A stretch of DNA of 64,000 nt from Actinomycetota bacterium (GCA_035701505.1 DASSSA010000133.1:11748-75747); one strand, 5' to 3'. Shown: positions 28,145 through 64,000, counted from the stretch's first letter. A program made the numbers and translations. Notes: generated by a model from the letters alone, not told the origin.

Positions 28145-29800
28145 TCAGAACCGGGGGGTCTCGGTGTACTCGCCGAACACCTGCCGCAAGGTCCCGACGA
28201 TCTCCCCCTCGGTGCACATGGCCCGGGCACAGTCCACCAGGAACGGCATCACGTTGTCGTCGGTCGCCGCGGCGGCCCCCAGCCGGTCCAGCGCCATCCC
28301 GGCCCGGTCCTGGTCACGACGCTGTCGTACGGCACGAACCCGCCGGGCCTGCTCCTCCTCGAGGTCCGGAGGGATCTCCAGGATCTCCACGGGGCCACCG
28401 TCCGGCTCGACGAACTCGTTCACACCGACCTTCACCAGCCGTCCCTTCTCGTACCGCTCCTGTTCCCGGTAGGCGGACTCCGCGATCTCCTGCTGGAAAT
28501 ACCCGCGGTCGATCCCGGCGAGGATCCCCTCGAGCATCGACCCCCCGCCCATCCGGCCGATCCGGGCGAACTCCTCCTCGGCGCGCTCTTCCATCCGATC
28601 CGTCAGCGATTCGAGGAAGAACGAGCCACCGAGAGGATCGATCGCGCTCGGAACCCCCGTCTCGTACGCGATGATCTGCTGGGTCCGAAGCGCCAGTTTC
28701 GCCGCCTTCTCCGTCGGCAGGGCCAGGACCTCGTCCAGAGCGTTCGTGTGGAGCGACTGCGTGCCGCCCAGGACCGCGGCCAAAGCCTCGATGGCAGTAC
28801 GCACCACGTTGTTCATGGGTTGCTGCGCGGTGAGCGACACGCCGGCCGTCTGGGTGTGGAACCGCAGGCGCATCGAGGAGTCCTCCTTCGCCCCGTACCG
28901 GTCCTTCATCCACCGGGCCCAGATCCGCCGGGCCGCCCGGTACTTCGCGATCTCCTCGAAGAAGTCGATATGCGCGTTGAAGAAGAACGACAGTCCCTGC
29001 GCGAATCGGTCCACGTCGAGCCCCCGGGCCGTGCCGAGCTCGACGTATGCGAACCCGTCGGCCAGCGTGTAGGCGAGCTCCTGCCAGGCGTTCGCCCCGG
29101 CCTCGCGGATGTGATAGCCCGAGACGCTGAGAGGGTGCCACTTCGGAACGCGCTCGGCGCAGAACTCGATGAGGTCGCCGATCAGCCGGAGGTGGGGCCG
29201 GGGTGGGAAGATCCACTCCTTCTGGGCGATGTACTCCTTCAGGATGTCGGTCTGGAGCGTTCCATCGAGGCGGTCCCACGGGACGCCCTGTTCCTCCGCG
29301 GCCGCCAGGAAGAACGCGAAGATCACAACCGCGGGCCCACTGATGGTCATCGACGTCGTGATGTCGCCGAGCGGGATGCCCTCGAAGAGTTGTTGGACGT
29401 CGGCCAGTGAGTCGGTGGCGACGCCACATCGGCCCACCTCCCCCTCCGAGCGCTGGTCGTCGGAGTCCCGCCCCATCAGCGTGGGCATGTCGAAGGCCAC
29501 CGACAGGCCGCCCTGCCCCTGGGCGAGCAGGAACTTGTAGCGGGCGTTGGTCTCGGCCGCGGTCCCGTATCCGGCGAACTGACGCATCGTCCACAGCCGT
29601 CCCCGGTACATCGTCGGGTAGGCGCCGCGGACGAACGGGTACCGGCCGGAGTCTCCGAGGTCCCGCTCGGGGTCGAACCCTGAGAGGTCCTCCTCGGTGA
29701 ACAGCGGCTGGACGGGTTGGCCCGAGAGGGTCTCGAAGTCCGCATCCCGCTCGTCCGAGGCCCGGTAGGTCCGCTCCCACCCGTCGTGTTCGCTCGTCAT
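28145..29800 (-). CDS. Acyl-CoA mutase (methylmalonyl-CoA mutase family) catalytic/substrate-binding subunit only. There is no B12-binding domain.
   Basis: 551 aa. Strong MCM N-terminal TIM-barrel motifs (FVRGAYPTMYRGRLWTMRQFAGYGTAAETNARYKFLLAQGQGGLSVAFDMPT). Ends where canonical enzymes continue into the cobalamin domain. Start taken at ATG 29798-29800 (AGGAAGG 6 nt upstream) rather than the track's GTG at 29827. Confidence 0.85.
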   Translation of the reverse strand: MTSEHDGWERTYRASDERDADFETLSGQPVQPLFTEEDLSGFDPERDLGDSGRYPFVRGAYPTMYRGRLWTMRQFAGYGTAAETNARYKFLLAQGQGGLSVAFDMPTLMGRDSDDQRSEGEVGRCGVATDSLADVQQLFEGIPLGDITTSMTISGPAVVIFAFFLAAAEEQGVPWDRLDGTLQTDILKEYIAQKEWIFPPRPHLRLIGDLIEFCAERVPKWHPLSVSGYHIREAGANAWQELAYTLADGFAYVELGTARGLDVDRFAQGLSFFFNAHIDFFEEIAKYRAARRIWARWMKDRYGAKEDSSMRLRFHTQTAGVSLTAQQPMNNVVRTAIEALAAVLGGTQSLHTNALDEVLALPTEKAAKLALRTQQIIAYETGVPSAIDPLGGSFFLESLTDRMEERAEEEFARIGRMGGGSMLEGILAGIDRGYFQQEIAESAYREQERYEKGRLVKVGVNEFVEPDGGPVEILEIPPDLEEEQARRVRAVRQRRDQDRAGMALDRLGAAAATDDNVMPFLVDCARAMCTEGEIVGTLRQVFGEYTETPRF

Positions 29801-29810
29801 GCCGGCCTTC

Positions 29811-30749
29811 CTACTGCTCTTCTCCACGCGACAACCGTTCGATCAGGATATCGGCGGCCCGGTAGGGATCTGTCGTTCGCGCCGCAACCTCGTCGGCGAG
29901 CTGTGGATCCCTCGCCAGCGCGTCGCGTACCGCTCCGCGGAGACGTTCGCCGGCCAGCCCCTCCACCTCCCGAAACAACCGGCCCCGGCGCTTCTGCTCG
30001 AGCTGGCCCGTCTCCTCCAGGTGCGCGCGATGGCGGGCCATCGCCTCCCACAGCTCGTCGATGCCCTCCGAGCGCTGCGCGGAGGCCCGCACCACCGGCG
30101 GTGTCCACTGGGCCGGCGAGCCCATCCGGATCATCTGCTCCAGGTCGCGGGCCGCGGCGTCGGCCCCCTCCCGGTCGGACTTGTTCACCACGAAGACGTC
30201 GGCGATCTCCAGGATCCCCGCCTTGGCCACCTGCACGGCGTCGCCCCATCCCGGCGATACCACCACCAACGTGGTGTCGGTAGCGGCGGCCACGTCGACC
30301 TCGGCCTGTCCCACGCCCACGGTCTCCACCATGACCAGGTCCTTCCCCGACGCGTCGAGGATCCGAACCGCTTCGGGAGCGGCGAGCGCCATCCCCCCGA
30401 GATGGCCTCGCGTGGCCATCGACCGGATGAACACACCGGGATCCGTCGCATGCTCCTGCATGCGCAGCCGGTCCCCGAGCAGGGCCCCACCGGTGAACGG
30501 CGACGTCGGATCGATGGCCAGGATGGCGACGGACAGCTGGCGGCTCCGCGCATGCCGGACGAGCTCTCCGGCGAGCGTGGACTTGCCCACTCCCGGCGAG
30601 CCGGTGAGGCCGATCGTGGAGGCCCGGCCGGTGTGCCCGAACAGGCCCGAGGAGAGCTCGGCCAGGCCCTCGGCCCCGTCTTCGACCATCGAGATGCCCC
30701 GGGCCACGGCGCGGCGGTCTCCGGCAAGGACGGCCTCGACCAGGTCCAC
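29811..30749 (-). CDS. meaB: MeaB/ArgK-type G-protein chaperone of B12-dependent mutases
   Basis: P-loop GSPGVGKST, NKSD G4 motif and the MeaB N-terminal LAGDRRAVARGISMVE motif. GTG start at 30747-30749. Confidence 0.9.
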   Translation of the reverse strand: MDLVEAVLAGDRRAVARGISMVEDGAEGLAELSSGLFGHTGRASTIGLTGSPGVGKSTLAGELVRHARSRQLSVAILAIDPTSPFTGGALLGDRLRMQEHATDPGVFIRSMATRGHLGGMALAAPEAVRILDASGKDLVMVETVGVGQAEVDVAAATDTTLVVVSPGWGDAVQVAKAGILEIADVFVVNKSDREGADAAARDLEQMIRMGSPAQWTPPVVRASAQRSEGIDELWEAMARHRAHLEETGQLEQKRRGRLFREVEGLAGERLRGAVRDALARDPQLADEVAARTTDPYRAADILIERLSRGEEQ

Positions 30750-30783
30750 GGGGCAAGGGTACCCGTCGCTCCGGCTCAGACCG

Positions 30784-31197
30784 TCACGCAACCGACAGGA
30801 GCCGCGCGAACCGGGCCACCGTGAGCGGGTGGGCGACGAGCCCGGAGATCCGGATCTCCCGCCGAAGGATCTTGGCGAGGACGCGGCGGCCATCGCGTGA
30901 AAGCGGGTCCGGCAGACCCAACCGGAGCGGCGCGGACGACAGGAGAAGCAGGGCGTCGGAGTCTGCCCACACCCGCACGGGAAGCCGGCCGGGCCGGGAC
31001 GATCCGTTCGAGACCGAGACCTGCCCCGGCGACAGCGCGATCCGCACAGAGACCCCGGCGTCGACCGCGACCAACTCGACGACGGCCGGACCGAGCAGCG
31101 AACGCCGGTCCGGGTGCTGCCGAAGGTTCGCCTCGATCAGGCCTCCGACCATGGTCGCCAACCCGTTCGGTTCCTGGTCGGCGTACACCACGGTCAT
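30784..31197 (-). CDS. SCP2 (sterol carrier protein-2-like) domain protein, 137 aa
   Basis: The real ORF is the last 137 codons of track ORF 30784..31962. Its ATG overlaps the ADH stop (ATGA). SCP2-like pattern ...LIEANLRQHPDR...VRIALSPGQVSVSNG...LAKILRREIRISG. Confidence 0.7.
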   Translation of the reverse strand: MTVVYADQEPNGLATMVGGLIEANLRQHPDRRSLLGPAVVELVAVDAGVSVRIALSPGQVSVSNGSSRPGRLPVRVWADSDALLLLSSAPLRLGLPDPLSRDGRRVLAKILRREIRISGLVAHPLTVARFARLLSVA

Positions 31198-54321: not shown

Positions 54322-55401
54322 TCACCCTCGCCCGTCGCCGCCGAGCTGCTCGGCTCGTTCCGCTGCCAGGAGCCCGTCGACGAACTCGTCGATGTCCCCC
54401 TCGAGGACGTCGTGGAGCCGATGGGCGGTGAGCTTGATCCGATGGTCGGTCACCCGGTTCTCGGGGAAGTTGTACGTCCGGATCTTCTCGGCCCGTTCCC
54501 CCGTCCCCACCTGGGCCCGTCGTGCCGCGGCCTCCTTCTGCTGGGCCTCCTCCTGGGCACGGCTGAGGAGCCGGGCCCGCAGATACCGCATGGCCTTCTC
54601 CCGGTTCTGGAGCTGGGACCGCTCCTCCTGTGTCGCCACGACGATGCCGGTCGGCAGGTGGGTTATGCGAACGGCGGAGTCCGTCGTGTTCACGGACTGC
54701 CCGCCGGGGCCGGAGGAACGGTACACGTCGATCTTCAGGTCCTCGGGCCGGATCTGGAGGTCGACCTCCTCCGCCTCGGGGAGAACCGCCACCGTGGCCG
54801 TGGAGGTGTGGATCCGGCCTCCGGACTCGGTCACCGGGACGCGTTGGACCCGGTGAACGCCGGACTCGTGCTTCAGCCGTGAATAGGCACCCTTCCCCTT
54901 GACCTCCAGGACCAGCTCCTTGAACCCGCCGAGGTCCGAGGGCGAGGCCGACAGGACCTCGGTCTTCCACCCGTGCCGCTCGGCGAAGTGGCGGTACATC
55001 TCGAACAGCTCACCGGCCCACAGAGCCGCTTCTTGCCCGCCCGCGCCGGCTCTGATCTCGACGATCACGTCCCGCTCGTCGTTCGGGTCCTTGGGGACGA
55101 GCAGCTGTTCCAGCAGGGCCTGGAGGGACGTCGCCTTGCTCTCGGCGGCCTCGGCCTCCTGCCGCAGGTACGCAGCCATCTCCGGATCCTGCTCCGAGGC
55201 GGCCATGGCCCCGGCCTCTTCAGCCTGGCGCCGGGCGTCCTTGTATTCGCGGTACGGGCCGACGATCTCCCCCAGCTCGGCGAGGTCCTTGCCCAGCCGG
55301 CGCAAGCGGTCGCGATCGGCGACCACGTCGGGCGAGGCCATCTCCGCGGAGAGCTGGTCGTAGCGCTGCTCGACGTCCGACAGGCGTGCTTCGATATCCA
55401 T
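54322..55401 (-). CDS. prfA: Peptide chain release factor 1
   Basis: GGQ motif (SGPGGQSVNTTDSAVR) and a PxT-type stop-codon recognition region. 359 aa. Confidence 0.95.
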   Translation of the reverse strand: MDIEARLSDVEQRYDQLSAEMASPDVVADRDRLRRLGKDLAELGEIVGPYREYKDARRQAEEAGAMAASEQDPEMAAYLRQEAEAAESKATSLQALLEQLLVPKDPNDERDVIVEIRAGAGGQEAALWAGELFEMYRHFAERHGWKTEVLSASPSDLGGFKELVLEVKGKGAYSRLKHESGVHRVQRVPVTESGGRIHTSTATVAVLPEAEEVDLQIRPEDLKIDVYRSSGPGGQSVNTTDSAVRITHLPTGIVVATQEERSQLQNREKAMRYLRARLLSRAQEEAQQKEAAARRAQVGTGERAEKIRTYNFPENRVTDHRIKLTAHRLHDVLEGDIDEFVDGLLAAERAEQLGGDGRG

Positions 55402-56321: not shown

Positions 56322-57224
56322 TCAGGCTTCCGTGGCCGGGAGTTGCGCCTCCCGGCGCAACACCTCGTTGAACGAGGCGATGGCCACCTCGATCTCCCCC
56401 CGGTCCGGGGGCTTCGTCGTGATCTTCTGGAGCCACAGCCCGGGAGCCATCACGGCCCGCATGACCGGCGAGCGCTCGTGCCGCGCGCCCAGGCGCAACA
56501 CTTCGAACGCAAGTCCGGCGATGACGGGGATGGCAAGGATGCGGGACCCGATCCGCCACCAGAGGCCGGGGTTGCCGAAGGCCGCGAACACCAGGATCGC
56601 GATCACCATGACGATCAGCAGGAAGTTCGTGCCGCAGCGGGGGTGAAGCGTCGAGTACCGGTCGACGTTCTCCGGGACGAGAGTCTCGTCGTGCTCGTAG
56701 GTGGCGATGGTCTTGTGCTCCGCCCCGTGGTACTCGAAGACCCGACGGATCTCTCTCGCCCGCCCGATCAGCACGAGGTAGCCGAGGAAGAGCGCCACCC
56801 GGAACACTCCCTCCAAGACATTGACCAGGACGCCCGAGCCGACGCGATGGCCCACCCACCGGAAGGCGATGGCGGGGCCCACGACGAAGATGCCGACGAA
56901 CAGCGCGAGGGCGACCGTCATCGACAGCGCCATCTGCCGTGACGAGAGACGCACGTCCTCGGGTGAGGACTCGTTCGCCGAGATGGACAGGGCCTTGACC
57001 CCGATGGCGAGGGCCTGTCCCAGGGCGATGATGCCGCGGAAGAACGGTTGGCGGAGGATCCGGAACCGCCGGGCGATGGAGTGGACATCGTGCGACTCGA
57101 TGTGGATGGATCGATCCGGCCTGCGAATGGCCACAGCCCACACGTCGCGGCCGCGCATCATGACGCCCTCCATGACGGCCTGACCGCCGTAGAAGTGGTG
57201 GGCAGCGGGGCGATCGTTGCCCAT
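56322..57224 (-). CDS. DUF1385-family membrane-associated protein (YqhQ-like)
   Basis: N-terminal YGGQAVMEGVMMRG, and HGAEH in the middle. Conserved neighbour of rpmE/prfA in Gram-positives. Confidence 0.8.
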   Translation of the reverse strand: MGNDRPAAHHFYGGQAVMEGVMMRGRDVWAVAIRRPDRSIHIESHDVHSIARRFRILRQPFFRGIIALGQALAIGVKALSISANESSPEDVRLSSRQMALSMTVALALFVGIFVVGPAIAFRWVGHRVGSGVLVNVLEGVFRVALFLGYLVLIGRAREIRRVFEYHGAEHKTIATYEHDETLVPENVDRYSTLHPRCGTNFLLIVMVIAILVFAAFGNPGLWWRIGSRILAIPVIAGLAFEVLRLGARHERSPVMRAVMAPGLWLQKITTKPPDRGEIEVAIASFNEVLRREAQLPATEA

Positions 57225-57238
57225 CCTCGACGTGACGA

Positions 57239-57451
57239 TCAGGACTGCGCGGACCGTTGTCCGTACCGGCGCTGGAACCGCTCCACGCGGCCACCGGTGT
57301 CGACCAGCTTCTGCTTGCCCGTGTAGAAGGGATGGCAGTTCGAGCAGATCTCGACCCGAAGCTCCGGCTTGGTGGAACGCGTGGTGAACGTGTTCCCGCA
57401 GGAACAGCGCACGGTGGCCTTGACGTATTCGGGGTGGATTCCCTGTTTCAT
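57239..57451 (-). CDS. rpmE: 50S ribosomal protein L31 (zinc-ribbon type)
   Basis: [47 protein letters not shown]. Confidence 0.95.
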
Positions 57452-57491: not shown

Positions 57492-59096
57492 TTACGAGGC
57501 CGGCGCCTTGGCGATCTCCTTCAGGAACTGCTCGTTGGACTTGGTTGCCCGGATCTTGTCCACCAGGAGCTCGAGCGCAGCGCCCGCCTCCAGCGCGTGG
57601 AGGACCCGGCGGAGCCGCCACACCAGGGCCAGCTCCTCCTGGGGCATTAACAGCTCCTCCTTGCGGGTACTGGAGGCTTCGACGTTGATAGCCGGGAAGA
57701 TCCGCTTCTCGGCCAGGGTACGGTCCAGTCGGATCTCCATGTTCCCGGTGCCCTTGAACTCCTCGAAGATGCCCTCGTCCATCCGGGATCCCGTCTCGAC
57801 GAGCGCGCTCGCGATGATTGTGAGCGATCCGCCCTCCTCGATGTTGCGGGCGGCGCCGAAGAATCGCCTCGGCGGGTACAGCGCGGTCGAGTCGATCCCG
57901 CCGGACAGGATCTTGCCCGATGCCGGCGCGGCCAGGTTGTAGGCCCGGGCCAGCCGGGTGATCGAGTCCAGGATGATGGCCACGTCGTTGCCCATCTCGG
58001 CCAGGCGCTTGGCCCGCTCCAGGACGAGCTCGGTCACCTGGATGTGCTGGTCCGGCGGCTTGTCGAAGGTCGAGTAGACGACCTCGGCAGCCTGAACCGT
58101 CCGCTGCCAGTCGGTGACCTCCTCGGGCCGCTCGTCCACGAGCAGCACGATCACGTGGGTCTCCGGATTGGAGGTCAGGATCCCGTTCGCGATGTTCTTC
58201 AGCACGGTGGTCTTGCCGGCCTTGGGTGGCGAGACCACCATCCCCCGCTGGCCCTTCCCGATCGGCGCGACCATGTCGATGATCCTCGCGGTCACGTCGG
58301 TCGGCGAGCTCTCCAAACGGAAACGCTCGTGGGGGAAGAGCGGCGTGAGCTTCTCGAAGACCGCCCGCTGCTTGGCCGTCTCGGGGTCGACCCCGTTCAC
58401 GCTCTCGATCTGGAGCAGCGCGAAGTACTTCTCGCTGTCCTTGGGCTGGCGGACCTTGCCGGTGACCACGTCGCCCTTGCGGAGCATGAATCGGCGGACC
58501 TGCGACAGCGATACGTAGATGTCCTCGGACCCCGGTAGATAGCCGGACGTTCGAAGGAATCCGTAGCCCTCCGGCAGAACGTCCAGAAGACCTGTAGCCG
58601 TGGGGGCGGTGGCGATCTCCTCCTCCCGGGCCTCCACCTCGCGCTGACGGCGCTCCTCCCGGAACCGTCGCCGCTCCTCGCGAGACAGCCGTCGCCGCCC
58701 CCCGTCGGGACCGGGCCTACCTTCCTGCCCCGGCCTACCTTCCGGTCTGGGCCTTACTTCTGACCCCGGCCTGCCCTCAGGGCGTCCGCCCGGCTCGCGA
58801 ACCTCACGCGGCTCCGTGCGGGTAGGGGCCGCCGCGGACTCGCCGTTGTCGGAGGCCTGGTTCCCTTGTTCCGCGGGAGAGGTCGGAGTCTCCGCCTGAG
58901 CCTCCGCCGGCCGCGGCGGGGACAGGTCCGTTTCTGTCCCTGCGTGACCATCCTGGCCCGCGGCCAGGATCGCGGCGACCAGCTCCGCCTTCTTCAGTTT
59001 CTGATGCCCCCCGATTCCCAGGCCGGCGGCGATCGTGTGTAGCTCCGACGCGACCTTGCCCTCGAGGACGCTCTTTTCCATCGTTTCGGGTGCCAA
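57492..59096 (-). CDS. rho: Transcription termination factor Rho, with an Arg/Gly/Pro-rich N-terminal insertion
   Basis: Walker A GKTTVL, Q-loop and R-loop. TTG start at 59094-59096 with GGGAGGAG 5 nt upstream (inside the tal 3' end). Alternative ATG at 59079-59081. Confidence 0.9.
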
Positions 59097-59759
59097 CTAG
59101 GCTCCTCCCTTCATATTCCGCTGAAGGGCTTGCCAGTCCTGAGCGAACTTCTGCAAGCCCACATCGGTCAGCGGATGTTTCACCAACTTGACGAACACGT
59201 CGTACGGCATGGTCGCGATATCCGCACCGGCGATGGCCGACTCCACCACGTGCATCGGGTGGCGGAGCGACGCCGCGAGGACGTTCGTATCGTAGCCCTG
59301 GATGTCATAGATCTCGCAGATCTGCCGGAGCGCGTACATCCCATCGGCGGCCACATCGTCGATCCGCCCCAGGAACGGCGAGACGATGTATGCCCCGATC
59401 TCGGCGGCCAGGATGGCCTGCGCCGGGGAGAACACCAGGGTCACGTTGATCCTGAAGCCATCGGCGACCAGCCGCTTGCCCGCCTCCAGGCCGTCGGGGG
59501 TCATGGGAACCTTCACCACCGCGTTGGGTCCCGTCTGAGCCAGTTGGACGCCCTGCTCGTACATAGGGTCCGCTTCCGGCTCGGTGGTCTCCAGGGACAC
59601 GTCCCCCTCCACCTCCGCCAGGATCTCCTTCCACAGAGCCTCCGGGTCGTCGTTCTCCTTGCTCACGAGGGTGGGATTGGTCGTCACTCCGGACAGGACC
59701 CCCCACCGGTTGATCTCGCGGATCTCCTCGAGGTTCGCGGTGTCAAGAAATAGCCTCAT
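59097..59759 (-). CDS. tal: Short (Fsa/TalC-type) transaldolase / fructose-6-phosphate aldolase family
   Basis: 220 aa. MRLFLDTANLEEIREI...GVTTNPTL with a Schiff-base Lys region. Start taken at ATG 59757-59759. Confidence 0.85.
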   Translation of the reverse strand: MRLFLDTANLEEIREINRWGVLSGVTTNPTLVSKENDDPEALWKEILAEVEGDVSLETTEPEADPMYEQGVQLAQTGPNAVVKVPMTPDGLEAGKRLVADGFRINVTLVFSPAQAILAAEIGAYIVSPFLGRIDDVAADGMYALRQICEIYDIQGYDTNVLAASLRHPMHVVESAIAGADIATMPYDVFVKLVKHPLTDVGLQKFAQDWQALQRNMKGGA

Positions 59760-60723
59760 GTGCTCCTTCCTTTCCGACGGGCGGGCGAACGCGCTCCCCG
59801 TCACGCGGTGCTGACCCGGTGATGCGCTCGGTCACCTTCTCCATAACCAGGTCGATGACGGCCGCGAGGGCCTGATCGAAGTTGTAGTTGGGGATGACCG
59901 GTACGCCATGGGACAGCGCTTGGCTCTTGATGTAGCGCTGGACCCGGCGGATCTTGTCGAACCCCTCCATGTACTTCGTCGCCGGACGCCCTGTATGGTC
60001 CGCCGACCGTGCAAGGAAGTGGTTGCGATGCAGCGCCTCGTCCTCCACCGTGACGATGACCGGCACGGCCATGACCCGGCCGCCCCGGGAGTCGAGGTCC
60101 ACGAACCCCGGCACCACGTGAGCCCCTTCGATGATCATCCTCATGCCCTCCACCGCCGCCCGTTCGAGCAGGGCATCGACACCGATCGACACCGCCGACA
60201 CCTGCTCCCGGAACCCCACCACGACGGCGTCCTTGGTCGGTGGCTCACGAAGGGCGTCGCCCGCCTCGAACGATGACTTGTACAGCGCCGGCATGAGCTC
60301 CCTGGAGAACACCCCCCGCATGACCTCGCGCACGGCATCCGTGGCCACCACCCGGACGATCCCCAGGCGCGTCGCGAGCTGGGTGGCGATGGTGGACTTC
60401 CCCACGCCGGTGGCCCCCCCGATCAGCACGATCAACGGGATATCCAGCGCGTCGACCTCCCGCCACCGGATATAGTTCTTCGCGTAGCGCTCGCCGGCCA
60501 GGTCCTCGATCACCGAGACGGCGATCCCGTCGAGCTCCCCGGTAGTGACCGAGGGCGATCCCAACTCGCGGAGTCGTTCCTCGATGCCCTCCGCGACCTG
60601 ATACGACCGCCAGGACGACAGTCCGGTCACCATCACCCGGGAAGCCATCAATCCCTTGGAGTAGGGAAGGCCCGTCTCCTTGTCGGAGATGAGGATGTGC
60701 TGGTTCTTGATGTCCTTGGTCAT
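59743..60723 (-). CDS. 2-phosphoglycerate kinase (ATP-cone plus P-loop kinase)
   Basis: N-terminal ATP-cone-like region (HILISDKETGLPYSKGLMASRVM), then P-loop LIGGATGVGKST. The ATG at 60721-60723 overlaps the cpgS stop (ATGA). Confidence 0.75.
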   Translation of the reverse strand: MTKDIKNQHILISDKETGLPYSKGLMASRVMVTGLSSWRSYQVAEGIEERLRELGSPSVTTGELDGIAVSVIEDLAGERYAKNYIRWREVDALDIPLIVLIGGATGVGKSTIATQLATRLGIVRVVATDAVREVMRGVFSRELMPALYKSSFEAGDALREPPTKDAVVVGFREQVSAVSIGVDALLERAAVEGMRMIIEGAHVVPGFVDLDSRGGRVMAVPVIVTVEDEALHRNHFLARSADHTGRPATKYMEGFDKIRRVQRYIKSQALSHGVPVIPNYNFDQALAAVIDLVMEKVTERITGSAPRDGERVRPPVGKEGAHEAIS

Positions 60724-62051
60724 CGCGCCTCGTGCCGCTTCACCGCGAGATCCAACGTCTCCGCGAGCAGGTTGGGGAGATCGGTCCCGGCGTCGACCGC
60801 CAGGGGACGGTTGTCCACGAAGACCACCGTGGCCCCTCGTGCCATGGCCCGCTCGCAGGCCACGTCCACGGCCGCCGCCTTCAGCTCCGTGAGGAGCACC
60901 TCGTACGCCTCTGCCTTCTCCAGGTCCTCCGTCAACCCCGACCGGTCGGCAAGGCGGGCGCTCCAACCCACCACCTTGCATCCGTAGCCTTCCTCCAGGG
61001 AAGCCATCTGCTTTGCTGCGACTGCCTCGGGTGCGGTGGTGGTGAAGAACGCCTCCTTGCCTCGAACGTCGCCCAGCGGAACCGGTTGGAGGTCCGTCAC
61101 GACGACCCGGGCATCACCGCGTATTCGCTGGACGTGGGATGTCAGGGCGAGGAGGTTCTCGGGCCCAGTGATCGGGCTCCCTGCCATTGTAAGCACCACC
61201 AGGTCCGATAGCAACAGTCGATAGGGGCCCAGGTAGCCGCCCACGTACTCCGGCGGTGCCGAGGCCGGTACGGCCAGGATCCCGGCGTCCCAGGGGATGG
61301 GAGGAACGGCCGAGCCGCTCCCCTCGAGGACGACCAGGCCCGCCCCGAGGCCCACGGCGAGCTCGGCGGCCTCCCGCACGTTCGAGGCGAACGGGGCCCC
61401 GGCCAATCCCCCGCCCGCCCGCCGGGCCCCGATGGTCGTGACGCCAGAGGTGACGGCATCCTCCAGGTAGTCGGACGCGGCATGCTCACCTCGTCGGACC
61501 AGGTCGAGCAGCCCGTCAAGCGTGACCGTCCCGGCCCGGGCCACCTGGGGCTCCGATGGACCCCCGCGGCCCATGGCCACCACGATGGGGTTGCGACCCA
61601 TCGCCTTGGCCACCCGAGCGACCGCGCCCCCGATCGCCGTCTTGCCCGTCCGTTTCCCCGTTCCGATCACTGCGACGGCGGGACACGGGAGAGGCGGGCC
61701 GGAGATGGGCGGGTCCAGCCGGAAGTCCGGGCCGAGGTACGGGATCCCCCGCACCAGGGAAACGGCGGCGAGCTCCATCCGCTCCCGGTAACCGACCACG
61801 GGCTCGTCCGACAGGTCGAGCACCGCCTCCGGCCTCACACCGTCGAGCGCATCGGCCAAGGCCGCCCTGATATCGGCTCCGGCGGGGAACGTGGCCAGGC
61901 CGAGGTCGGGAAGCGCCGACGGATCCACCTTCTCCGTCCCACCGAGGAACAGCGCGGCGACGACCTCGTGGCCCCTGCTCCGCGCGGCCTCGATCCCCCA
62001 CCTGGTCACCGGGGGGTAGTGTTCGCCGTCCACCAGGACGAGGACCCTCAC
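60720..62051 (-). CDS. cpgS: Cyclic 2,3-diphosphoglycerate synthetase (archaeal CpgS family)
   Basis: GTG start with GGAGGG 7 nt upstream. N-terminal VLVLVDGEHYPPV, typical of CPGS as I recall, and a P-loop-like AVIGTGKRTGKT. The track ORF is extended upstream by 93 junk codons. Confidence 0.7.
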   Translation of the reverse strand: MRVLVLVDGEHYPPVTRWGIEAARSRGHEVVAALFLGGTEKVDPSALPDLGLATFPAGADIRAALADALDGVRPEAVLDLSDEPVVGYRERMELAAVSLVRGIPYLGPDFRLDPPISGPPLPCPAVAVIGTGKRTGKTAIGGAVARVAKAMGRNPIVVAMGRGGPSEPQVARAGTVTLDGLLDLVRRGEHAASDYLEDAVTSGVTTIGARRAGGGLAGAPFASNVREAAELAVGLGAGLVVLEGSGSAVPPIPWDAGILAVPASAPPEYVGGYLGPYRLLLSDLVVLTMAGSPITGPENLLALTSHVQRIRGDARVVVTDLQPVPLGDVRGKEAFFTTTAPEAVAAKQMASLEEGYGCKVVGWSARLADRSGLTEDLEKAEAYEVLLTELKAAAVDVACERAMARGATVVFVDNRPLAVDAGTDLPNLLAETLDLAVKRHEAR

Positions 62052-62088
62052 GACGATCCCTCCGAAGATCGAGGCCTGGCGCTCGCGC

Positions 62089-62877
62089 CTACTCCGTGTG
62101 TACCGTGGCCTGCTGAACCGGCGGCTCGAACTCCCGGTAGAACTGCTCGCCTGAAGAGAGGGAGAAATGGGCGATGGCACTTCCGCCGCCGAACGGGAAC
62201 TTCCGGGTGATCTTGACCTCGTCCCCCTCGAACTCCAGTACGTTGTAGCAGGGTTTCGTGTACCCACGCAGCCGTAGGGACGCCACCGTCCCTGCGTTCG
62301 CGATGTACAGGTTTTCCAGCCGCCATACATACGGTACGTGCTTGTGCCCGGACAGCACGATGTTCACCCCAGCGGCGATGAGCACCTCGAGGAGATCGCC
62401 CGCATCCATCACCGTGCTCCGCTCGCGGCCCGTGCCGGGGACGGGAATCAGGTGATGGTGAAGGACGAACACCTTCAGCTCGGCGGGCTGGGAGAACTGC
62501 TCCCTGATCCACGGGTAGCGCTCCCGACCGATCTGGCCCTCGTTCAGGTCCGGCTCGCTCGAGTCGGCTCCGACCACCCGAACCCCTCCGACATCGATGG
62601 ACCAGTGACGGGGGCCGATCAGCTCCTCGAAATGCAAGTAACCGACGTTCCGGGCGTCATGGTTGCCGGGCACCGTAAACAAGGGGGACATGAGTCGCTC
62701 GGCGTACGCCACCCAGTTCTTGTACTCCTGGCGATAGCCCTCGTTCGTCAGGTCGCCGCTGCACACGACGATGTCGGGGGTGAGCTCGTTGATCTCCACG
62801 ATGACCCGGTTCATCAGGTTCGGCACGAAGTAGGGCGACCCGACATGGGGATCCGAGATGTGGGCAATCGTCACCAC
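62089..62877 (-). CDS. Calcineurin-like metallophosphoesterase
   Basis: Motifs DPH, GDL, GNHD and GHxH (ISDPHVG, CSGDLTNEG, PGNHDAR, LSGHKHVP). Confidence 0.8.
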   Translation of the reverse strand: MVTIAHISDPHVGSPYFVPNLMNRVIVEINELTPDIVVCSGDLTNEGYRQEYKNWVAYAERLMSPLFTVPGNHDARNVGYLHFEELIGPRHWSIDVGGVRVVGADSSEPDLNEGQIGRERYPWIREQFSQPAELKVFVLHHHLIPVPGTGRERSTVMDAGDLLEVLIAAGVNIVLSGHKHVPYVWRLENLYIANAGTVASLRLRGYTKPCYNVLEFEGDEVKITRKFPFGGGSAIAHFSLSSGEQFYREFEPPVQQATVHTE

Positions 62878-62966
62878 GGCCCCCCAGTGTAGCTTCGCGA
62901 ACGGGGCGGGCCCGGAGCTTCGCCCCCCGTTTGCCCACCGGACCGGCGTGGGACCATTCCCCGAAC

Positions 62967-64000
62967 GTGAACGGCCTCGACCTCGTGATCGTGATCCTCG
63001 TCGCCCTCACAGCATTCACCGGTTTTCGGCGGGGCGCGCTCCTCCAGCTGTTCTCGTACGCCGGCCTGATCCTGGGGGTGCTGGCCGGCGCGCTGCTGGC
63101 GCCCGTCGTCGCATCTCAGGCCCAGAGCGACGCCTTGCAGGCTGGGATCGTCATCGCAGTGTTGCTCGGAATGGCAGGGATCGGCGACCTGCTCGGCTGG
63201 GTGGCCGGCACGTCGGTCCGGGCAAGGGCCCACGGGGTTCCCGTCGTGGGGACGGCCGACAAGGCCGGCGGCTCGGCGATCTCGGTGGTCGGGCTCCTGC
63301 TGGTCACGTGGTTCCTGGCCCTCAACCTTGTGAACGGACCGTTCCCCCGGGTCAACATCGCGATCCGGGGATCGGCCATCGTCAGGAGCCTCGACGCAGT
63401 GCTGCCACGTCCGCCCTCGCTCCCTGCCGAGGTACGCCGCTTCCTCAACCGACATGGGTTCCCCGACGTCTTCGCCGGGCTGCCGCCCGCTCCGACGGGC
63501 CCGGTGGACATGCCGAGCGAGGCGCAGGCTCGCCGGGCCTTCCAGGCCGCGGAGGCGAGCACCGTTCGGATCGTCGGCTCCGCCTGCGGCGAACTTCTAT
63601 CGGGGAGCGGCTTCGTGGTCTCAGGCGACTACGTCGTGACCAACGCCCATGTGATCGCCGGCGTCCACGGGCCGCAGGTGCAGGGACAGGACGGGACCTC
63701 GCGGCCGGGTACGACGGTGCTTTTCGATCCCAGTACTGACCTCGCCGTCCTCCATGTCGAGAGCTCGGCGGGGCAACCGCTTGCTCTGCTCTCCAGCCAG
63801 GTCGGTCGGGGGACCGGTGGGGCCACGCTGGGGTATCCGGGCGGGGGCGACCTGACCGGCACGCGGGCGGCGGTTCGCCGGCCCATCGACGCCGTCGTGG
63901 GACGCGACATCTACGGCACCCGCGAGGTCGAGCGCGATGTCTACGAGCTCCAGGCCAGGGTGGAGCCGGGCGACTCCGGCGGGCCGTTCGTCCTGCCGGA
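62967..64000 (+). CDS. MarP-like membrane serine protease (CvpA/colicin-V-production domain plus trypsin-like protease), 3'-truncated by the window end
   Basis: Not in the track because it has no in-window stop. My translation from the GTG at 62967 gives VNGLDLVIVILVALTAFTGFRRGALLQLFSYAGLILGVLAG... (CvpA TM helices), then ...GSGFVVSGDYVVTNAHV...D...VEPGDSGGPFVLP (catalytic His/Asp/Ser triad of a chymotrypsin fold). Confidence 0.75.
   Translation, partial: MNGLDLVIVILVALTAFTGFRRGALLQLFSYAGLILGVLAGALLAPVVASQAQSDALQAGIVIAVLLGMAGIGDLLGWVAGTSVRARAHGVPVVGTADKAGGSAISVVGLLLVTWFLALNLVNGPFPRVNIAIRGSAIVRSLDAVLPRPPSLPAEVRRFLNRHGFPDVFAGLPPAPTGPVDMPSEAQARRAFQAAEASTVRIVGSACGELLSGSGFVVSGDYVVTNAHVIAGVHGPQVQGQDGTSRPGTTVLFDPSTDLAVLHVESSAGQPLALLSSQVGRGTGGATLGYPGGGDLTGTRAAVRRPIDAVVGRDIYGTREVERDVYELQARVEPGDSGGPFVLP

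Follow-up and report, generated by a model that had tools for sequence, protein, structure and literature searches.

The synthetase of cyclic 2,3-diphosphoglycerate (cDPG) has been crystallised from Methanothermus fervidus (PDB 8ORU and 8ORK), and the residues that hold 2,3-diphosphoglycerate (2,3-DPG), Mg2+ and ADP in this enzyme are known from a 2023 structure paper (PMC10690619). The reference enzyme for the archaeal 2-phosphoglycerate kinase (2PGK) is also that of M. fervidus (Lehmacher & Hensel 1994, as cited in PMC4890121), and in Pyrococcus yayanosii two proteins with the consecutive tags PYCH_14390-400 have been assigned to cDPG synthesis and are reported to be jointly up-regulated (PMC4890121). 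Other roles considered for cDPG in methanogens are those of osmolyte, store of carbon and phosphate, and ATP reserve, the last through the reversible synthetase of M. fervidus; M. thermautotrophicus is described as having an activity that hydrolyses cDPG (PMC1224877). Here we compare these systems with a pair of genes, cpgS for the synthetase and a gene of the 2PGK family, found in a stretch of 64,000 nt from an Actinomycetota bacterium (GCA_035701505.1, DASSSA010000133.1:11748-75747), which we call the window. The order along the direction of transcription is metallophosphoesterase (MPE)-cpgS-2PGK-transaldolase, followed by rho-rpmE-DUF1385-prfA, and all of these genes are on the minus strand (Table 1). 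We consider that the first four genes probably form a vertically inherited, native actinobacterial unit with a leaderless-type promoter, placed upstream of rho, that makes cDPG.

The cpgS assignment, which an earlier note had made by reading the window sequence, holds. A PDB sequence search, which set this identity, aligned residues 2-437 of window CpgS with residues 5-452 of the M. fervidus synthetase (E 4.5e-96, 41% identity), and the homology search of 60720..62051 led to no different P-loop family, the match being cDPG synthetase. The copies of Pfam and NCBIfam that we used hold no CpgS model, and near homologues of window CpgS carry precomputed PF27272. A second solved cDPG synthetase, PDB 9sxb (436 aa), matched with E 3.9e-93; it groups with the Thermococcus paralvinellae representative in a neighbour-joining tree, and the literature searched contained no paper about it. 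An exact-sequence look-up of window CpgS matched no record, the closest protein being 93% identical and from an Actinomycetota MAG (metagenome-assembled genome). Of the 11 ligand-contact residues that could be checked, ten are kept both by the window protein and by all 80 orthologues, namely E45, K46, K145, R146, K149, T150, D208, T353, E404 and K406 in M. fervidus numbering. Among them are the contacts made in trans to 2,3-DPG (E45/K46, which are E40/K41 in window CpgS), the Mg2+ ligand D208 (D194), the charge-shielding K406 (K391), and the adenosine and ribose contacts T353 and E404. The loop GTGKRTGKT occupies residues 130-138, and its K, R, K and T are invariant in the 80 orthologues and in 62 of 62 family representatives. 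For a further adenosine/ribose contact, P335, no counterpart could be assigned, since the 460-aa sequence has Phe at position 335. Both enzymes have the GTGKRxGKT loop, the ligands of Mg and the contacts made in trans, and full-length homology to a characterised protein places the product of 60720-62051 in the CpgS family. Unlike M. fervidus, the host of the window gene is bacterial and high-GC, and its relatives look mesophilic.

Relatives of this CpgS are numerous: more than 7,800 homologous proteins were found, the best 120 of which are all at least 70% identical to it, and the named ones among these 120 are called "(cyclic) 2,3-diphosphoglycerate synthetase" and come from Actinomycetota metagenome-assembled genomes (MAGs). 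Moreover, when one genome was scanned for each GTDB species, at least 468 loci proved to encode a CpgS relative. With so many homologues, many of them already labelled as the synthetase, rarity of this locus is not supported. Clustering at 50% leaves 237 representatives of the family (E <= 1e-30); looking up cluster members gave an organism for only a few of them (Streptomyces, Bipolaricaulota, Actinomycetota and Thermococcus), and the named anchors also include Methanobacteriales. On this evidence the window holds a known enzyme pair in bacterial form, whose genes already carry database labels in hundreds of bacterial genomes and whose biology is predicted.

Gene neighbourhoods were compared in the best 80 of the at least 468 species-level loci, in which CpgS is 64-93% identical to that of the window. 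By title, 77 of them are Actinomycetota, Actinomycetes or Actinobacteria MAGs, two are "bacterium" and one is Candidatus Velamenicoccus archaeovorus. The order MPE-cpgS-2PGK-transaldolase-rho-DUF1385-prfA is conserved across these loci, with 2PGK beside cpgS in all 80, the transaldolase gene after 2PGK in 79, and MPE beside cpgS in 78, one of the two exceptions having no upstream sequence. The pair is still adjacent in deeper relatives (L086-L091, 44-73% GC), in which CpgS is 42-49% identical over a trimmed alignment. The same block lies between the threonine operon and rho in L086, L087 and L090, and upstream of rho in L088, whose contig begins within the MPE gene, while L091 has it in the same position without MPE. 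In L089, MPE-cpgS-2PGK stands in another context, where glpX (fructose-1,6-bisphosphatase class II) replaces the transaldolase gene and all the overlaps are of 4 nt. MPE adjoins cpgS in each of L086, L087, L088, L089 and L090.

In other genomes the pair is found among different genes. Streptomyces sp. WAC 01529 (CP029617.1), a cultured strain, has only the cpgS-2PGK pair, whose stop and start codons overlap as ATGA just as in the window; its CpgS, annotated "2,3-diphosphoglycerate synthetase", is 46% and its 2PGK 40% identical to the window proteins, but its neighbours in the chromosome arm are unrelated ones, without phosphoesterase or transaldolase. A Thermococcus paralvinellae MAG likewise has the same gene order with the same ATGA overlap (CpgS 40% and 2PGK 35% identical to the window), but here the host is hyperthermophilic, there is no adjacent MPE or transaldolase gene, and the upstream neighbour encodes a glycosyltransferase resembling mannosylglycerate synthase (PF21969 MGS_GT). 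Because the pair recurs in Streptomyces, in the deep lineages and in Thermococcus with differing surroundings, the cpgS-2PGK bicistron is, to judge from these neighbourhoods, the conserved core in both domains, to which many Actinomycetota add MPE and a gluconeogenic or pentose-phosphate enzyme. In Methanothermobacter (L081) and M. fervidus (L083), by contrast with the window, where cpgS comes second in a unit of four genes, cpgS lies away from 2PGK and has a RimB-like gene next to it; no 2PGK homologue was found within +/-10 kb of the Methanothermobacter cpgS or on the 6.7-kb M. fervidus contig. Hence the description of the window pair as an archaeal-type operon fits the ATGA-overlapped pair of Thermococcus, but not the classic cDPG-making methanogens, in which the two genes are not adjacent. 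The opposite idea, drawn from the methanogen loci, that the operon form is purely bacterial, was ruled out by the same bicistron in Thermococcus. A Bipolaricaulota MAG shows yet another arrangement (L085, 8001-10908), in which cpgS overlaps the gene of an iPGM-type (2,3-bisphosphoglycerate-independent) phosphoglycerate mutase; a search for a 2PGK homologue within 8 kb found none.

The product of 59743-60723 is filed here as a 2PGK-family protein rather than as a proven equivalog. Its best NCBIfam matches are two 2-phosphoglycerate kinase models, PRK04220 and PRK12337 (E 3e-87 and 3.4e-79), and the identity given to it in the earlier note stands at this family level. The match to PRK04220 (292.8 bits) runs nearly end to end, over model positions 3-296 of 306, with the N-terminal region of the window protein aligning to the archaeal model from its position 3, and the P-loop is common to both, as an ATP-cone-like N-terminus may be. 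As to the claim of an ATP-cone plus a P-loop, the P-loop is clear and the ATP-cone is weak (Pfam E 0.0032, 18.4 bits vs a 25.8-bit cut-off); an ATP-cone is recorded in some orthologues and in the Thermococcus partner. The orthologues are named "2-phosphoglycerate kinase" at JGI, and many are "hypothetical protein" at NCBI. The conversion of 2-phosphoglycerate to 2,3-DPG by the window protein is predicted, the support for it being solely the conserved coupling to cpgS.

The transaldolase gene, which had been placed immediately upstream of the pair, actually lies downstream of it along transcription. Its product matches Pfam TAL_FSA (E 3.3e-54) and scores 256.3 bits with TIGR00875, above the cut-off of 245.95 bits. 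By eye, the Glu of "VSLETT" and the Phe of "SPFLGRID" stand where E. coli FsaA has Gln59 and Tyr131. This suggests that, whatever its NCBIfam name, 59097-59759 may encode a true transaldolase rather than a fructose-6-phosphate aldolase.

The first gene of the unit encodes a protein with a clear Pfam Metallophos match (PF00149, E 2.1e-20), in which all five metal-binding motifs are present (D9xH11, G41D42, G71N72H73D74, H140-142 and G177H178xH180). Each motif is at least 97% conserved in 81 sequences, which also have many invariant arginines, and in the NCBIfam scan MPE reached no curated model. The nearest solved structures are those of Rv0805 and GpdQ (PDB 2HY1, 3IB7, 2ZO9 and 2DXL; E ~1e-10), which share motifs I-V with MPE but are only remotely similar to it, MPE forming a distinct and highly conserved subfamily. 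MPE is 56-68% identical where CpgS is 43-49%, and so is the better conserved of the two. We regard MPE as a reasonable candidate for the hydrolysis or turnover of cDPG or 2,3-DPG. To our knowledge, no gene has been assigned to the cDPG hydrolase activity of M. thermautotrophicus.

The start of the unit was studied by comparing 76 upstream regions, those of 75 related loci and of the window. A TANNNT hexamer was present 6-12 nt before the MPE start in all 76 sequences (TAGACT in 49 and TACACT in 25), and a motif resembling a Shine-Dalgarno (SD) sequence was present before that start in only 6. Such a -10 box close to the start codon, without an SD sequence, is the leaderless-mRNA signature in actinobacterial promoters. 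In the window the box sits in a divergent intergenic region of ~90 nt (62878-62966). The candidate promoter came from this comparison; a scan with the sigma-70 consensus gave a single match, which was intragenic. No terminator-like site was found on the minus strand within the cluster or between the transaldolase gene and rho, and an Rfam scan of the whole window returned no RNA family, so no known riboswitch or leader. The genes from MPE through transaldolase are thus likely to be carried on one transcript, which may continue into rho.

Within the unit the genes are closely packed, and the ATGA overlap, GTG start, GGAGGG SD sequence and P-loop GGATGVGKST that had been reported for the pair are each present in the minus-strand sequence. 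The GTG start of cpgS (62051-62049) gives a protein with the N-terminus (M)RVLVLVDGEHYPPV and fits its orthologues, which are 441-448 aa long. The last 17 nt of 2PGK are shared with the transaldolase gene, for which there is a separate ribosome-binding site, GGAAGGAG. The likely start of rho is an ATG at 59081, and the gene follows the transaldolase stop at a distance of 0-15 nt.

Table 1. Positions of the MPE-cpgS-2PGK-transaldolase unit, its sequence signals and the flanking genes, in window coordinates
Feature	Position	Strand	Remarks
Divergent gene, CvpA domain + trypsin-like protease	62967-64000	+	runs past window end
-10-like hexamer TACACT	62886..62891	-	8 nt before MPE GTG; no SD sequence between; putative leaderless promoter
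MPE	62089..62877	-	262 aa; first gene of unit
SD sequence of cpgS, GGAGGG	62058..62063	-	6 nt before GTG start
cpgS, cDPG synthetase homologue	60720..62051	-	443 aa
Walker A/substrate loop of cpgS, GTGKRTGKT	61638..61664	-	corresponds to M. fervidus K145, R146, K149, T150
ATGA overlap, cpgS stop/2PGK start	60720..60723	-	translational coupling
2PGK-family gene	59743..60723	-	326 aa
P-loop of 2PGK, GGATGVGKST	60391..60420	-	residues 102-111
Short transaldolase/Fsa-family gene	59097..59759	-	220 aa
rho	57492..59096	-	534 aa from TTG 59096; TIGR00767 E 3.3e-184; context gene
rpmE	57239..57451	-	70 aa
DUF1385	56322..57224	-	300 aa
prfA	54322..55401	-	359 aa

In the pathway that we propose, 2PGK would use ATP to convert 2-phosphoglycerate into 2,3-DPG, CpgS would then consume another ATP in forming the intramolecular pyrophosphate that closes the ring of cDPG, and the presumably co-transcribed phosphoesterase may open or dephosphorylate cDPG or 2,3-DPG for turnover. 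In apparently mesophilic bacteria, cDPG would serve as an anionic compatible solute and/or as a reserve of phosphate, carbon and energy, and not as a thermoprotectant, and this reserve could be drawn from and returned to gluconeogenesis. The metabolic neighbours of the pair are transaldolase, glpX in L089 and, beside cpgS in Bipolaricaulota, the iPGM-type mutase. That cDPG is actually made we infer from the genes. The wider proposal is a tentative one, and we would call it possible but somewhat doubtful: that cDPG is widespread in apparently mesophilic soil Actinomycetota, including some Streptomyces, that it is produced and recycled through a dedicated leaderless operon, that the arginine-rich MPE encoded first in it is the missing cDPG or 2,3-DPG hydrolase, and that the genes together buffer phosphate, carbon and energy in connection with gluconeogenesis. 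If true, the textbook confinement of cDPG to hyperthermophilic methanogens would be wrong, and its role would shift to osmotic or desiccation protection, or to phosphate and carbon storage, in soil bacteria. Moreover, the conserved phosphoesterase would be the first gene candidate for cDPG breakdown, and the perhaps mesophilic bacterial enzymes, together with cultured Streptomyces, would offer new starting points for the production of this extremolyte, a step that recent papers call a bottleneck.

Several points weigh against cDPG synthesis by this unit. Papers from 2023 and 2025 call cDPG exclusive to hyperthermophilic methanogens. In the literature searched, the synthetase is named for archaea only and cDPG in bacteria is nowhere discussed; no demonstration of bacterial cDPG was found there, in agreement with the earlier note. 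In window CpgS the adenosine contact E305 is lost, the position being G291 and variable across the clade. The 2PGK score falls below the curated NCBIfam cut-off of 343 bits, the family includes kinases of other substrates, such as mevalonate-3-phosphate 5-kinase (NF008996), and the PDB sequence search returned no solved 2PGK structure for comparing substrate residues. Finally, MPE is without a characterised close relative, and no MPE lies beside cpgS in Streptomyces, Bipolaricaulota, L091 or the archaea.

Some of these points would be expected if the function had diverged, that is, if the kinase acts on another substrate, or the synthetase makes another product, or the pathway ends at 2,3-DPG as a metabolite or regulator, and no cDPG accumulates. 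The sub-threshold kinase score and the other-substrate members of its family, and the loss of E305, can be read in this way, as can the location of the Streptomyces pair among secondary-metabolism-like genes in a chromosome arm; a co-transcribed phosphoesterase could also hold the pools low. However, the contacts to 2,3-DPG and Mg (E45, K46, K145, R146, T150 and D208) are all invariant, and the coupling of kinase and synthetase is kept across two domains, which is hard to explain unless the product of the kinase is the substrate of the synthetase. We therefore regard a diverged function as rather unlikely, while taking it seriously. The Streptomyces pair itself may take part in making a specialised metabolite.

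That the genes form a thermoprotectant pathway marking a thermophilic host, a possibility raised by the earlier note, seems to us very improbable. In its favour, thermoprotection is the best-known role of cDPG, the IVYWREL index calculated over 36 validated window proteins (0.432) would nominally correspond to ~69 °C with the Zeldovich formula, and one related MAG has Centralia in its title, which presumably refers to coal-fire-heated soils. However, the same index, calculated for the same four proteins of the unit, is 0.437 +/- 0.010 in 74 species-level relatives, including MAGs with the titles GFS (L012), nzgw (L011) and MFD (L013, L014 and L031). Because the value is clade-wide, it reflects clade composition and not temperature, and the estimate of 65-69 °C was dropped as uninformative. 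We take GFS to mean glacier-fed stream, nzgw New Zealand groundwater and MFD a Danish soil survey; the titles of the relatives thus point to soil, groundwater and glacier streams. Moreover, cpgS is present in Streptomyces and in genomes of Methanobacterium and Methanobrevibacter, which are mostly mesophilic genera.

A recent horizontal acquisition of the genes from an archaeon is scarcely credible, for although the family was first described in archaea and the ATGA-overlapped bicistron exists in Thermococcales, the GC content at third codon positions (GC3) of the four cluster genes (0.856-0.869) matches that of the neighbouring housekeeping genes rho, DUF1385 and prfA (0.875-0.907), the cluster lies immediately upstream of rho/rpmE in 80 species-level relatives and, in deeper lineages that differ widely in GC, fills the slot between thr operon and rho, and the identity of window CpgS is just 40-42% to every archaeal anchor vs 42-49% to distant bacterial ones. 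The codon composition is thus native, and a recent transfer unlikely. Returning to the native unit, its surroundings do not have the "distinctly archaeal flavour" once attributed to them: besides rho, rpmE, DUF1385 and prfA, the wider window holds bacterial housekeeping genes (prmC, tsaC, rpiB, glyA, a GT4 transferase gene, the atp operon, murA, ligA, folD and serA). In Mycobacterium tuberculosis the order is thrA-thrC-thrB-rho-rpmE-prfA; the cluster would then be an insertion in a classic actinobacterial block. An ancient transfer between the domains may have occurred, in either direction. Neighbour-joining analysis of 70 family representatives gave star-like trees, in which the split between archaeal and bacterial sequences has a bootstrap support of only 43/100, too low to date such a transfer or to give it a direction.

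Some further observations concern the compared loci. In Streptomyces the pair (CP029617.1, 146-164 kb) lies near a polyketide-cyclase-like gene, a homologue of MfnB-type 4HFCP synthase and a methyltransferase gene. The RimB-like gene (PF05618) of the methanogens directly follows cpgS at 11405-11935 in L081 and at 5914-6492 in L083, and overlaps it in M. fervidus. In Bipolaricaulota, cpgS comes after an ABC transporter operon. The thrB slot is taken in L087 (1577-2752) and L090 (3691-4878) by a PF10143 "PhosphMutase" gene, whose family has been put forward as a substitute for the usual homoserine kinase.

Elsewhere in the window, the divergent gene at its end encodes an N-terminal CvpA (colicin V production) membrane domain fused to the protease domain, a fusion that we would liken to mycobacterial MarP. 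A gene for the catalytic subunit of methylmalonyl-CoA mutase (560 aa) is followed by that of a MeaB GTPase chaperone at 28145-30893 on the minus strand. Between 42000 and 48000, the region of atpB and of ABC-transporter and solute-binding-protein genes, GC dips to 0.63-0.65 vs ~0.70 elsewhere, and several open reading frames there have reduced GC3.

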